This document shows positions 25,901 through 43,900 of a stretch of 64,000 bases of DNA, piece after piece. The stretch lies in NCBI RefSeq assembly GCF_057098645.1, contig NZ_CM169472.1, one strand, 5' to 3'. The first letter of the stretch is position 1, and every line of letters starts with the position of its first letter. Position numbers: made by a program.

Positions 25901-28900
25901 TTCTGGCCTGCCATGCTGGAAGGCAGCAACTTCCGCAAGCCGTCCAACCTGTTTGTTCATGGCTATGTGACGGTGAACGGCGCAAAGATGTCCAAGTCTC
26001 GCGGCACCTTTATTAAAGCCAGCACCTGGCTGAATCATTTTGACGCAGACAGCCTGCGTTACTACTACACTGCGAAACTCTCTTCGCGCATTGATGATAT
26101 CGATCTCAACCTGGAAGATTTCGTTCAGCGTGTGAATGCCGATATCGTTAACAAAGTGGTTAACCTGGCCTCCCGTAATGCGGGCTTTATCAACAAGCGT
26201 TTTGACGGCGTGCTGGCAAGCGAACTGGCTGACCCGCAGTTGTACAAAACCTTCACTGATGCCGCTGAAGTGATTGGTGAAGCGTGGGAAAGCCGTGAAT
26301 TTGGTAAAGCCGTGCGCGAAATCATGGCGCTGGCTGATCTGGCTAACCGCTATGTCGATGAACAGGCTCCGTGGGTGGTGGCGAAACAGGAAGGCCGCGA
26401 TGCCGACCTGCAGGCAATTTGCTCAATGGGCATCAACCTGTTCCGCGTACTGATGACTTACCTGAAGCCGGTACTGCCGAAACTGACCGAGCGTGCAGAA
26501 GCATTCCTCAATACGGAACTGACCTGGGATGGTATCCAGCAACCGCTGCTGGGCCACAAAGTGAATCCGTTCAAGGCGCTGTATAACCGCATCGATATGA
26601 GGCAGGTTGAAGCACTGGTGGAAGCCTCTAAAGAAGAAGTAAAAGCCGCTGCCGCGCCGGTAACTGGCCCGCTGGCAGATGATCCGATTCAGGAAACCAT
26701 CACCTTTGACGACTTCGCTAAAGTTGACCTGCGCGTGGCGCTGATTGAAAACGCAGAGTTTGTTGGAGGTTCTGACAAACTGCTGCGCCTGACGCTGGAT
26801 CTCGGCGGTGAAAAACGCAATGTCTTCTCCGGTATTCGTTCTGCTTACCCGGATCCGCAGGCACTGATTGGTCGTCACACCATTATGGTGGCTAACCTGG
26901 CACCACGTAAAATGCGCTTCGGTATCTCTGAAGGCATGGTGATGGCTGCCGGTCCTGGCGGGAAAGATATTTTCCTGCTAAGCCCGGATGCCGGTGCTAA
27001 ACCGGGTCATCAGGTGAAATAATCCCCCTTCAAGGCGCTGCATCGACAGCGCCTTTTCTTTATAAATTCCTAAAGTTGTTTTCTTGCGATTTTGTCTCTC
27101 TCTAACCCGCATAAATACTGGTAGCATCTGCATTCAACTGGATAAAATTACAGGGATGCAGAATGAGACACTTTATCTATCAGGACGAAAAATCACATAA
27201 ATTCAGGGCAGTTGAGCAACAGGGAAACGAGTTGCATATCAGTTGGGGAAAAGTTGGCACCAAAGGGCAAAGCCAGATAAAAAGTTTTTCAGATGCTGCG
27301 GCAGCGGCAAAAGCGGAGCTTAAGCTGATTGCGGAGAAGGTGAAGAAGGGGTATGTGGAGCAAGCGAAGGATAATTCTTTGCAACCTTCCCAAACGGTAA
27401 CGGGCTCTCTCAAGGTAGCGGACTTATCCACCATTATTCAGGAACAACCCTCTTTCGTAGCAGAAACCCGTGCGCCTGACAAAAATACAGATGCTGTTTT
27501 ACCGTGGCTGGCGAAAGATATTGCTGTCGTTTTTCCGCCCGAAGTTGTACACACCACGTTAAGTCATCGCCGCTTTCCCGGAGTTCCTGTTCAGCAAGCA
27601 GACAAATTGCCCCAATTACGTCGCTTAGCCTGTAGTGTGTCGCAACGGGATAATAAAACAGCCACATTTGACTTCAGCGCCTGTTCTTTAGAATGGCAAA
27701 ACACCGTCGCCCAGGCGATCAGTCAGATCGACGGCCTGAAAACAACACAGTTACCATCACCAGTAATGGCTGTACTCACGGCACTTGAAATGAAATGCAC
27801 AAGATATAAAGTGCGTGAGGATGTTATGGATCAGATCGTCCAGGAAGGCGGTCTGGAATATGCTACTGATGTAATAATACACCTTCAACAGATTGATATT
27901 GAATGGGATTATGCGAATAATGTCATTATTATTCTGCCGTCTGGCATTGCACCTAGCTACTTGGAGCAATATTCCAGATTTGAATGACGCCTACGTAAAC
28001 ATTTATCACTGACGGAAGAGTCTCTCTGGCAAAAATGTGCACAAAAACTTATTGCCGCAATTTCACATATTCCAGAATGGCGGCAACCATTAATTGCTTT
28101 GTTATTACCCGAAAAACCAGAAATTGCACATGAAATTGCCCAGCGTCTACTGGGGCAAAAAAAATTACCCTCGCTTGAGTGGTTAAAAATAGTGGCGACT
28201 GATGAGCACATTCTTGCCTCATTAGAAAAATATCACGAACCATATGCCATTTTTGATGATTACTATTGTGGTGCGATATGGTCAGCCACCGTATTACAGG
28301 AGCAAGGTGTTGCAGCCCTGCCCCGATTTGCTCCCTATGCCGCAAGTGACTACTGCGCCGATGTGTTGCGTCATATCAATCATCCGTTCGCATTGACACT
28401 GCTTATACGTGTAGCCGGGCAAACTAAACGCTGTCACGATCGGATGACGAAAGCCATTGCTGCGTTCCCACATGCAGCAATGGCGGCACTGACGGAACTT
28501 CTTGGGCAAAAAGAAGAGAACAGTTGGCGCATTATGCTAATGACAATGCTTATCTCACAACCAGCACTGGCAGAACAGGTCATTCCCTGGCTCTCGACAC
28601 CCGCAGTTGCCGTACTGAAATCATGCCAGCAACAACTGACACAGCCCTCAAACCATGCCAGCGCCGATCTACTGCCAGCCGTAGTAGTCTCCCCTCCCTG
28701 GCTTTCGAAAAAGAAAAAATCGCCGATTCCGGTGCTGGATTTAGCGCCATTAGGCATTGAGCCAATCTGTTATCTGACAGAAGAAATCAGTAATCAACTT
28801 TTGGCGAAATATATCTGGTATTCAAAACACATCACGGTTAGCCATGAAGAAAGTACTACCAACCTGTTGGCAAGGATGGGTTTTCAACGACGGATCGCTG

Positions 28901-40900: not shown

Positions 40901-43900
40901 AAGTGAACAGGAAAACTCACCGGCAGCTACGCGTCGGCTGTTTAGTTTTCAGGCTGGCGCACTGGCGGGCGGGCAAATTGTTTCACAAGCAGCAAAACGC
41001 AGTGCCGATGGCGAGCTGCTGTTAGCTACCCGCAACCGCTTAAGCAGCGTTGTGCCGCTGTCGCCTGATGCCTGGCAAATGTTGAGCGCGCCGTTACGCC
41101 AGCCGGGCATTGTGGCTTTGCGGGAATATTTACGCCAGCGTCCCCCCGCCTGCATACGGCCTCTTAATCAGGTCGATAACTTATTTATTCTGCCGGTCGC
41201 TGAGTGTATTTCGCTCGGTTGGGACAGCAGCCGCCAGACGCTGGATGCGCAGGTCATTAGCGGCGAAGGGGAAGATAATGTGCTGACGTTATCATTACCA
41301 GCCTCAGCCAGCGCACCTTATGCCGTTGAACGCATGGCGGCGCTTTTGCAACAAACAGACGACCCCGTGTGTCTGGTTTCTGGCTTTGTCAGTTTTGTTG
41401 AAGGGCAATTGACACTGGAACCACGGGTGATGATGACAAAAACCCGTGCCTGGGCGCTGGACGCAGAAACTACGCCTGTGGCACCGCTACCTTCTGCCAG
41501 CGTTTTGCCTGTGCCGTCTACTGCTCATCAGTTGCTGATACGCTGCCAGGCGTTACTTATTCAACTGCTCCATAACGGCTGGCGCTATCAGGAACAGAGT
41601 GCTATTGGTCAGGCAGAGTTGCTGGCGAATGACCTCACCGCGGTGGGTTTTTATCGGCTGGCACATGTGTTGGGACAATTTCGTAATACAGAAAGCGAGG
41701 CACGGGTAGAAGCAATGAATAACGGTGTTTTGCTTTGCGAACAATTATTCCCCATGCTTCAGCAACAAGGATGAAATAGTGCTTTTTACTAAGAGTTCTA
41801 CTCCAGTTCCGGACTGCTCACGCCACGGTATTAGGCATATCCTATATAGCCCCTGGTGAGAGTCACCAGTTCCTTGATTAAATAAAATGGAGTTTTACAT
41901 GAAGGCTTTCAATAAGCTGTTTTCCCTCGTTGTTGCATCTGTTCTGGTTTTCTCTCTTGCTGGCTGCGGTGACAAAGAAGAATCGAAGAAATTCAGCGCC
42001 AATCTGAACGGCACTGAAATTGCCATTACCTATGTCTACAAAGGTGACAAGGTGCTTAAGCAATCTTCTGAAACCAAAATTCAATTTGCCTCCATTGGTG
42101 CAACCACCAAAGAAGATGCTGCCAAGACACTTGAGCCGTTAAGCGCCAAATACAAAAACATCGCGGGTGTTGAAGAAAAATTAACCTATACCGATACCTA
42201 CGCGCAGGAAAACGTGACTATCGATATGGAAAAAGTGGATTTTAAAGCCCTGCAGGGTATTTCAGGAATCAACGTTTCTGCTGAAGATGCCAAAAAAGGT
42301 ATCACTATGGCGCAAATGGAACTGGTGATGAAAGCCGCTGGTTTTAAAGAAGTGAAATAATCGGTTGGCGGTCATGCTCTAAACATGACCGCCAATTTTT
42401 TAGCCTTTTTTCACATGCTGGCGCGCTGCCAGTCCACGCAGAAAATAACGTAAAAATTGATCGCCGCATTCGCGGAAGTTTTTATGATCCGGTGCGCGCA
42501 TCATCGCTGTAATTTCCGGCATCGAAACGCGGAACTGCTGTTCGGTGAGGATAGCCAGAATGTCATCGGTTTTCAGCGAAAACGCGATGCGTAATTTTTT
42601 CAGCACGATGTTGTTATTAATGCGACGTTCCGGCTCCAGTGCCGGAGCAGACTCATCCTTGCCGCGTTTTTCATAAATCAGGCCATTGAGGAATGACGAC
42701 AAAACAATGTCCGGACAACGCTGAAAACCCTCTTCGTCTTCTTTACGTAGCCAGACGGCGATCTGTTCCGCGGTGACTTCGACATTACCCAGCGCCAGAA
42801 TACGCACCAGGTCATTATTATTGGCTTTCAAAATGTAGCGCACGCTGCGCAGAATATCGTTACTTAGCATGAGGCCTTCAGGTGTTGATGAGGCAAAAAG
42901 CCATTTTAGCAGTCTTTTACAGGCCAATCGCCTCTTTTAAGCTTTTCAGATAACGGCGGCTGACCGGCACGGTTAAGCCATTACGCAAAATCAACTCGGC
43001 CTGGCCGTTATCTTCCAGACGAATCTCCTGTAAATGCGCGAGGTTAACCAGATACTGACGATGGCAGCGCAGTAGTGGTGTACGACTTTCCAGGGTACGT
43101 AATGTCAATTCGGTAAAGCCCTCTTTCCCTTCGTGGCTGGTAACGTAGACACCGCTCATCCGACTGCTGACAAATGCCACATCTTTCATTTGCAGCAAAT
43201 AAATCCGACTATGCCCCGTACAAGGGATAAATTTCAGCGCCTGTTGATTTTCCGGTAACAGCGAAACATCCTGCTTGCTGCGCTCCTGACGCAATCGCGC
43301 CAGCGTTTTCTCCAGTCGCGCTTCATCAATTGGCTTCAGCAGATAATCAAAGGCATGTTCTTCAAAGGCTTTAATTGCGTATTCGTCAAACGCAGTGAGA
43401 AAAACAATATACGGGCGATGTTCCGGGTCAAGCATCCCCACCATTTCCAGACCACTGATGCGCGGCATCTGGATATCGAGAAACAGCACATCCGGGCGCA
43501 GTTTATGCACCGCGCCGATCCCTTCCACGGCGTTTGAACACTCTCCAACGATTTCAATATCGCTCTGCTCCTGCAAAAATACACGCAGGTTCTCCCGTGC
43601 TAACGGTTCATCATCGACAATTAAGACTTTAATCATGCCTCGTCCCTCCATGGTAGTCGTAACGTTATTCGGGTGTAACTATCAGGCTCACAGGCGACGC
43701 TTATTCCATAGTCATCGCCAAACCGTTCACGTAAACGCTTATCCACCAGATTCATCCCCAGCCCACTGGCATTGGTTACCGGTTGATACAAACCGGCATT
43801 GTCTTCGATCTCCAGCATCAAATGTTGCCCCTCACGTCGGGCGCTGATTGCCACTCGCCCTGTATCCAGCAGTTGTGATGTCCCATGTTTAATGGCGTTT

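Follow-up and report, generated by a model that had tools for sequence, protein, structure and literature searches.

The metG-yehR block and its conserved module

This analysis concerns a block of genes on the E. coli chromosome that lies between metG and yehR in a 64,000-nucleotide stretch of contig NZ_CM169472.1 (RefSeq assembly GCF_057098645.1), hereafter called the window. The block is bounded on the left by metG (24980-27022) and on the right by the lipoprotein gene yehR (41887-42360), and all genes between these two are encoded on the plus strand. Two large genes of the DUF4132 family, molR (27163-30957; 1264 codons) and yehI (30967-34585), are both pseudogenes in the window. They are followed by yehK (34646-34963; 105 residues), by the gene of an antitoxin small RNA (sRNA; 35083-35158) and by yehL (35270-36358), yehM (36369-38648), yehP (38641-39777) and yehQ (39774-41774). 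The latter four genes code for a MoxR-class AAA+ ATPase, a DUF5682 protein, a CoxE-type VWA protein of 378 residues and a SWIM-motif protein, respectively. An initial annotation, made from the window sequence alone, had described them as a tight operon with overlapping genes. Indeed, yehM and yehP overlap by 8 nucleotides and yehP and yehQ share an ATGA, but yehL and yehM are separated by a gap of 10 nucleotides. The nearest complete genome, O145 RM8988-C1, is 99.9% identical to the window over the block, and the block was matched in 5425 of 5426 complete E. coli genomes at the fixed site between metG and yehR.

DUF4132 proteins, in one to five tandem copies and often with WGR at the N-terminus, together with YehL, YehM, YehP and YehQ form one conserved, self-contained module that is widespread in bacteria. 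Sixty-five YehM relatives were aligned, and a motif derived from them was used to scan genomes, each species being represented by one; at least 554 relatives were confirmed among the 600 matches listed. Eighty loci were kept, which belong to Enterobacterales, Burkholderiales, Xanthomonadales, Myxococcota and a large number of Actinomycetota, and the E. coli proteins served as queries against their open reading frames (ORFs). Of the 80 loci, 70 contain the five families together in the order DUF4132-YehL-YehM-YehP-YehQ, most of the others being cut by contig ends. At least one DUF4132 ORF was found in 72 of the 80, and a YehP homolog accompanies YehL in at least 77. The same five genes were recovered by precomputed Pfam labels on independent contigs, where the identity of YehM amounts to 31-36%. 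A comparison of the flanks gave no gene family common beyond a genus, the largest one being present in 6 of 83 loci, and the five families thus constitute the whole system. The earlier proposal that the entire block works as one module holds for the DUF4132 genes with yehLMPQ, as their co-occurrence across genomes extends far outside Escherichia, but not for yehK, which was found only in Escherichia loci. The boundary gene yehR was seen only in Escherichia and Klebsiella.

One locus, from a metagenome-assembled genome (L008), encodes DUF5682 fused to VWA_CoxE in a single protein of 1180 residues. Two tandem copies of the system are located here (3227-23468), one with two DUF4132 genes and the DUF5682-VWA fusion, the other with a 501-residue unknown protein and a HEAT_2 protein replacing DUF4132. 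A gene of the ATP-dependent DNA ligase type lies directly upstream.

None of the eight proteins matched any family of PADLOC-DB 2.0 (5027 models) at E-values up to 0.01, and NCBIfam gave only generic AAA and VWA matches below the cut-off and a match, confined to WGR, with a Leptospira family. For yehK, the searches of Pfam, NCBIfam and PADLOC all remained without a match. That the function of the system is still unassigned, as had been stated before, agrees with the searchable literature, which gives YehL only as the name of a MoxR subfamily and contains no mention of DUF5682. Nothing here is categorically new: the genes are annotated, the pairing of MoxR with VWA proteins is known and YehL is a named subfamily. 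The partner set, i.e., a TIKI-like DUF5682 protein, a SWIM/OB protein and DUF4132 arrays, is new in comparison to the characterised MoxR/VWA systems and to those of PMC7159879.

Components of the module

YehL had been assigned to the MoxR-type AAA+ ATPases on account of its Walker A motif GEPGTAKS (35516-35539), and Pfam bears this out with a match to AAA_5 at 2.6e-34. Its other Pfam matches are weak (AAA_3, 0.014; bpMoxR, 0.0024 and partial). The marks of the class are present with GEPGTAKS for Walker A, RFEE for Walker B, N203 for sensor 1 and R218/R219 for the arginine finger. Residues G83, P85, G86, T87, A88, K89, S90, R154, F155, E156, E157, N203, R218 and R219 do not vary among 33 sequences that cover several phyla. 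These sequences are 42-90% identical to the E. coli protein, most of them 53-90%, which makes YehL the most conserved component across phyla. According to the literature, YehL names one of seven MoxR subfamilies and is one of only two MoxR proteins in K-12.

The identification of YehP as a VWA protein with an adhesion site dependent on metal ions (MIDAS) was likewise upheld, with Pfam matches to VWA_CoxE at 3.2e-72 and to VWA_2 at 5.3e-8. The MIDAS motif DQSGS is located at residue 222 (39304-39318), and the Thr and Asp positions of the site were identified by eye in the sequence only. A cassette, GTGGAGTATGGTCGGC, is found unchanged within yehP at 39499-39514 on the plus strand. In work with a yehP-egfp fusion (PMC2790909), this cassette reportedly stimulated +1 frameshifting by the ribosome, and the predicted frameshift product is 75 residues shorter.

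Genes for an AAA_5 ATPase and a MIDAS-containing VWA protein in one operon are likewise found in the couples NorQ/NorD, CbbQ/CbbO, RavA/ViaA and CoxD/CoxE; here, only yehM lies between the two. In the general mechanism described for such couples, the VWA protein is plugged into the ATPase ring and its MIDAS holds the client (PMC9976466), and by analogy YehL and YehP probably work in the same mode. The yeh module differs from these couples in that no client enzyme is encoded nearby and in having three extra constant partners (DUF5682/TIKI-like, SWIM/OB and DUF4132). Within the ATPase itself, YehL is set apart by an Ala in GEPGTAKS where a second Gly is usual, and by the Glu-Glu of the Walker B-like FEE. 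The pair may also resemble eukaryotic Midasin (Rea1), in which dynein-type AAA_5 modules and a MIDAS domain pull protein ligands. Midasin, however, is a single giant polypeptide with six AAA modules that targets pre-ribosomes, whereas YehL and YehP are separate proteins with unrelated partners.

YehM had been described as a protein of 759 residues with no recognisable motif. This description has to be replaced, as the protein belongs to the DUF5682 family (Pfam, 3.1e-98) and is predicted to contain an N-terminal TIKI/TraB-like domain. In an AlphaFold2 model with a mean predicted local distance difference test (pLDDT) score of 92.6, an alpha/beta domain of about 240 residues (approximately 36369-37088) is followed by helical repeats that form a HEAT-like solenoid. 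The modelled domain has the alpha/beta architecture with a parallel beta-sheet core that characterises the TIKI/TraB/ChaN/Ere fold. In the alignment of 65 relatives, an invariant set of polar residues comes to lie near the N-terminus, namely R10, H11, E35, H51, E83, D101, E143, R175, E176 and GGxH202. In the model, H11 comes directly after strand 1, strand 2 ends with E35, a helix contains R175 and E176, and H202 is again preceded by a strand; E83, too, is located either at the end of a strand or within a helix.

A structural study of RRSP places ChaN, HopBA1 and PMT in the TIKI superfamily and describes a common active site of two His and two Glu residues together with a conserved basic residue. 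The positions of H11, E35, R175-E176 and H202 in YehM fit this pattern. We conclude that a TIKI-type fold of the N-terminal domain is supported by the model, and that a candidate catalytic site of a peptidase or an esterase is likely but unproven. In comparison to the TIKI/TraB/PrgY/ChaN/erythromycin-esterase superfamily, which includes RRSP and HopBA1, YehM has no sequence similarity detectable in Pfam and PDB searches. The domain continues into a solenoid of about 500 residues, its gene is part of a MoxR/VWA operon, and its activity is putative. Across phyla the identity to YehM of E. coli ranges from 28 to 69%, with about 35% beyond Enterobacterales.

The two SWIM motifs noted before in YehQ, CSCGANGMCRH at residue 70 (39981-40013) and CDCIEGTLCEH at residue 166 (40269-40301), are both there, and Pfam matches them weakly (1.3e-3 and 0.21). 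Across 46 sequences, the first motif (C70, C72, C78, H80) does not vary; the second, which E. coli has, is lost in distant lineages. The protein further contains helical bundles and OB-fold-like beta barrels (approximately 40764-41456), and its homologs across phyla are about 19-63% identical to the E. coli protein. When YehM, YehQ and the DUF4132 domain were compared to the PDB by sequence and by profile, nothing meaningful emerged, the matches being coiled-coil or helical noise.

For molR and yehI, two giant paralogous ORFs with WGR-like N-termini had been proposed. The two are paralogs, with 38% identity over about 1190 residues, but both are pseudogenes here and the WGR domain is confined to the MolR type. 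The molR reading frame, which comprises a WGR domain, an alpha-helical region and DUF4132, is interrupted by an in-frame TGA at codon 275 (27985-27987), and RefSeq flags an internal stop in the nearest genome. Relative to K-12, yehI has a deletion of 1 nucleotide near 33312 and another of 13 nucleotides near 33386. Its end is out of frame and it is broken into ORFs at 30967-33345 and 33383-34585; the gene is annotated as frameshifted in the nearest genome. The 13-nucleotide deletion is missing from RM8988-C1, which has the 1-nucleotide deletion only, and may thus represent either a second hit on the yehI pseudogene in the lineage of the window or an assembly difference.

An intact MolR ortholog matches WGR (PF05406) at 5.1e-18 and DUF4132 at 1.1e-51, and both MolR-type paralogs match WGR at the former value. 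The WGR domain is encoded by residues 7-69 of molR (27181-27369), and in a PDB search it matched 2ra8_A at 1.6e-18 and, weakly, the WGR domain of PARP3. The start of YehI aligns with MolR residue 110, and Pfam detects no WGR domain in YehI. All three C-terminal halves scanned matched DUF4132 (PF13569), the best at the value given above for the intact MolR ortholog. In an alignment of 128 C-terminal regions from many phyla, the conserved DUF4132 core corresponds to approximately residues 940-1175 of molR (29980-30687). Residues R1039, R1079, H1107, P1131 and Q1134 are invariant, and D948, R949, D976, E977, D1001, D1002, H1053, D1125, Y1126 and E1127 are conserved in at least 90% of the sequences. 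In contrast to this invariant core, the WGR domain and the middle region are variable, an arrangement consistent with variable parts for recognition that are attached to a constant domain for docking or catalysis. Two or three DUF4132 genes are found in E. coli strains. The name molR, which stands for a molybdate regulator, is probably a misnomer, as had been suspected, since Pfam and NCBIfam gave only WGR and DUF4132 and no molybdate-related domain.

Decay, selection and regulation in E. coli

Seventeen complete E. coli genomes were taken at even steps down the similarity ranking, which makes for a small and non-random sample. A gene was counted as broken if flagged so by RefSeq, and some of the frameshift flags could reflect assembly errors. 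At least one core gene is broken in 8 of the 17 genomes, K-12 included. The lesions affect molR and yehI in RM8988, molR and yehQ in both K-12 and ABWA45, yehL and yehM in 15.TR.026, yehI in ACN001 and 98221, and yehM in O18; in EDL933, two molR copies, yehM and yehQ (IS1203 disruption) are broken. Every core gene is intact in the other nine genomes, including those of E. coli B ATCC 11303, KKa014 and TUM9812. yehP is broken in none of the 17 and yehL in one. As the lesions differ between strains, the losses are independent. According to the literature, the DUF4132 region has taken up a resistance transposon in sublineages of sequence type 131 (ST131). Outside the core, yehK is frameshifted in 3 of the 17 strains, and an internal stop is annotated for yehR of strain 98221 (L094, 16093-16494). 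Decay thus reaches the small Escherichia-specific genes around the module.

The ratio of nonsynonymous to synonymous substitution rates (dN/dS) within E. coli was 0.03 for yehL, 0.055 for yehP, 0.125 for yehM, 0.167 for yehQ, 0.19 for molR, 0.24 for yehI and 0.28 for yehK, with 0.015 for the neighbouring metG. All these values are far below 1 and indicate purifying selection in the species. In combination with the independent losses, they point toward a system that is functional but dispensable. In the strain of the window, where both molR and yehI are pseudogenes, the module is probably crippled.

Seven PHROG families match MolR, YehI, YehK, YehM, YehP and YehQ nearly end to end. Here YehM is split into pieces of 509 and 243 residues that are identical to the pseudogene pieces of O157 EDL933. 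A link to phages was rejected, because the matches reproduce O157 host genes end to end; most likely they represent host sequence that came to be part of a phage record from next to a prophage of O157, which lies just downstream of the locus (past btsS, at the place occupied by mlrA in other strains).

A LexA-type (SOS) site, AACTGGATAAAATTACAGGG, is found on the plus strand at 27136-27155, 8 nucleotides before the ATG of molR. It has the form CTG-N10-CAG and agrees with the consensus at 13 of 20 positions. The site is present in all 16 E. coli loci covering the region, and its form in Intestinirhabdus alba is AGCTGGATGTATGCACAGGG. In a review (PMC6590174), molR appears among the genes under LexA control for which an SOS box is known. 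Both the box and this listing had been overlooked in the initial annotation. A match to the LexA box in Erwinia was rejected as an upstream site, as it lies inside WGR coding sequence. With a WGR domain, a LexA box directly upstream and the SOS listing, MolR resembles PARP-type WGR sensors of DNA breaks and SOS genes. It differs from the former in lacking a PARP catalytic domain, its DNA binding is putative, YehI is without WGR, and the box is confined to Escherichia and Intestinirhabdus. In Deinococcus radiodurans, the WGR protein DR2173 and the DUF4132 protein DRA0166 were found to be strongly induced upon depletion of DdrO.

The spacer between yehK and yehL (34964-35269) contains the antitoxin sRNA gene, which was identified as OrzO-P of the type I toxin-antitoxin system zor-orz by a match to Rfam RF02083 with 99.9 bits over the full model. 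A promoter-like TTGCAA-17-TATAAT (35041-35069, plus strand) lies upstream of it, and a terminator-like hairpin with a T-run (35133-35160, plus strand) is located at its end. No Zor toxin ORF was found within the window, so that OrzO-P is an orphan. The element at 35041-35069 was also considered as a yehL promoter and rejected, as the start of the Orz sRNA fits better. As the Orz gene has a terminator and a promoter-like site of its own, molR-yehI-yehK and yehLMPQ are probably separate transcription units. Binding of H-NS upstream of yehL has been reported, as has the upregulation of yehL and yehM in an hns/stpA mutant. The number of zor genes is 0, 1 or 2 among the 17 strains, and the length of the spacer accordingly ranges from 306 to about 1240 bp. 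K-12 MG1655 has the same orphan Orz sRNA gene, though it was described in a paper as being without this locus.

Further downstream, the sole perfect CTGT-N8-ACAG of the window (45802-45817, plus strand) is located at the edge of prophage-looking DNA after btsS, just upstream of what is a DinI-like gene in the nearest genome. The site is thus plausible as an SOS box.

Possible functions of the module

The reading that we favour, while rating it at somewhat less than an even chance, is that of a MoxR/VWA-driven hydrolase machine with nucleic-acid-sensing adaptors. By analogy to NorQ/NorD and CbbQ/CbbO, YehP would plug into a hexameric ring of YehL to yield an ATP-driven remodelling motor. The MIDAS site of YehP would grip an acidic residue of a client, which would then be remodelled by ATP hydrolysis. 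YehM may be part of the same complex, as the DUF5682-VWA gene fusion suggests, and would supply the His/Glu site of a hydrolase, either a peptidase or an esterase. YehQ and the WGR-DUF4132 proteins would recognise the target, most likely nucleic acid or a DNA-bound substrate; such a target is suggested by the WGR and SWIM domains, by the OB-like barrels and by the SOS link. The invariant C-terminal domain of DUF4132 would dock on the core, and the divergent N-terminal parts would serve as interchangeable adaptors. The rise in dN/dS from yehL and yehP through yehM and yehQ to molR and yehI is counted in favour of this adaptor logic. Judging from the LexA box upstream of the adaptor genes, the adaptors would be made after DNA damage, and yehLMPQ would be a separate unit silenced by H-NS.

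Several observations weigh against this reading. The LexA box, restricted as it is to two genera, is absent in Serratia and Erwinia, and a scan of the other loci with gamma-type and actinobacterial LexA motifs found none upstream of the module. The Deinococcus pair is known as induced genes and not as members of a module, and a DUF4132 profile search gave mostly fragments. Numerous DUF4132 paralogs have no detectable WGR domain. With regard to the hydrolase, some proteins of the TIKI fold, e.g., ChaN and PMT, are not enzymes, and a Foldseek search of the whole YehM model against the PDB gave no significant match, the best E-value being 0.014 for weak matches to the solenoid. The searchable literature holds no biochemical or genetic result on any component. 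Finally, the frequent loss of genes in E. coli argues for a dispensable module.

The same parts could also make up an anti-phage or conflict system, with the DUF4132 proteins as diversifying sensors of invaders, MoxR/VWA as a threshold switch and the YehM hydrolase as the effector, by which the cell would be arrested or killed. The alternative has much of its mechanism in common with the hydrolase machine and differs mainly in trigger and outcome; we regard it as somewhat less likely, and it is the strongest of the rival explanations. Loci have one to five DUF4132 genes in tandem, two or three in E. coli, and different genes were knocked out independently in 8 of 17 E. coli genomes. Silencing of yehLM by H-NS is reminiscent of horizontally acquired genes, the genomic context varies between genera, and YehL has the weak and partial match to bpMoxR. 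The vWA-MoxR-VMAP/iSTAND/beta-propeller conflict systems described by Kaur et al. 2020 (PMC7159879) share with the yeh module a MoxR-vWA core derived from CoxD/CoxE and large additional components. Moreover, they are enriched in Actinomycetota and Myxococcota, where the yeh module is abundant as well. However, VMAP, iSTAND, FtsH and beta-propeller domains are missing from the yeh module, and in Pfam the 378-residue YehP has no C-terminal or other fused effector domain. The system is not listed in PMC7159879, which mentions neither SWIM nor WGR nor Yeh. Also counting against a role in conflict are the lack of PADLOC matches for all eight proteins and the absence of a defence island in the flanks of four annotated loci (L004, L007-L009), with no flank family shared beyond a genus. 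The chromosomal site between metG and yehR is the same in all but one of the complete E. coli genomes, dN/dS values of 0.03-0.24 give no sign of diversifying selection at the whole-gene level, and the PHROG matches look like host DNA in a phage record. The label of a conflict or sensor system, which had been put forward on comparative grounds, hence finds no direct support in the PADLOC search, in PMC7159879 or in the fixed chromosomal site.

A more specific version of the hydrolase machine would be a nucleic-acid-triggered machine that has so far gone unrecognised, in which MoxR/VWA loads or activates a TIKI-family protease on DNA-bound targets. The WGR/DUF4132 adaptors and the SWIM/OB subunit would act as guides, for the purpose of repair or of immunity against foreign DNA. 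We consider this version improbable as a whole. In the case of repair, its task once SOS is induced could be, for example, to remove trapped topoisomerases or crosslinks between DNA and protein, as a bacterial counterpart of p97 with SPRTN/Wss1.

Slightly less probable still is a dedicated chaperone for the maturation of a client enzyme, which would receive a metal or cofactor in the manner of CoxD/CoxE, NorQ/NorD and MoxR, possibly in relation to molybdenum as the name molR implies. YehP does belong to the CoxE-type VWA family (3.2e-72), the characterised MoxR/VWA couples mostly mature metalloenzymes, and YehM is structurally related to the haem-binding ChaN. Nevertheless, no client enzyme gene is conserved beside the module in about 80 loci, where no partners other than DUF4132, DUF5682 and the SWIM protein are constant. 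Neither Pfam nor NCBIfam revealed a domain related to molybdate or a cofactor, and the SOS control of molR as well as the WGR, SWIM and OB modules are a poor fit to such a chaperone. Least probable of all is an eroding, functionless relic whose organisation in E. coli reflects ancestry only: dead molR and yehI genes in the window, the loss of molR and yehQ in K-12 and of four genes in EDL933, broken core genes in 8 of 17 genomes and the ST131 transposon would agree with it, but purifying selection at dN/dS values of 0.03-0.24, the nine fully intact genomes, a yehP that is never and a yehL that is once broken, and conservation of the module across phyla speak against it.

The block is among the larger uncharacterised gene blocks of E. 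coli, and the same five-family module is found in hundreds of species from at least three phyla. The candidate catalytic residues H11, E35 and H202 of YehM and the link to the SOS response offer handles for experiments. With molR and yehQ broken, K-12 is the wrong strain for these, which would explain why standard screens have remained silent. Should the hydrolase prove real and be powered by the MoxR/VWA motor, the module would represent a new use of a widespread chaperone pair.

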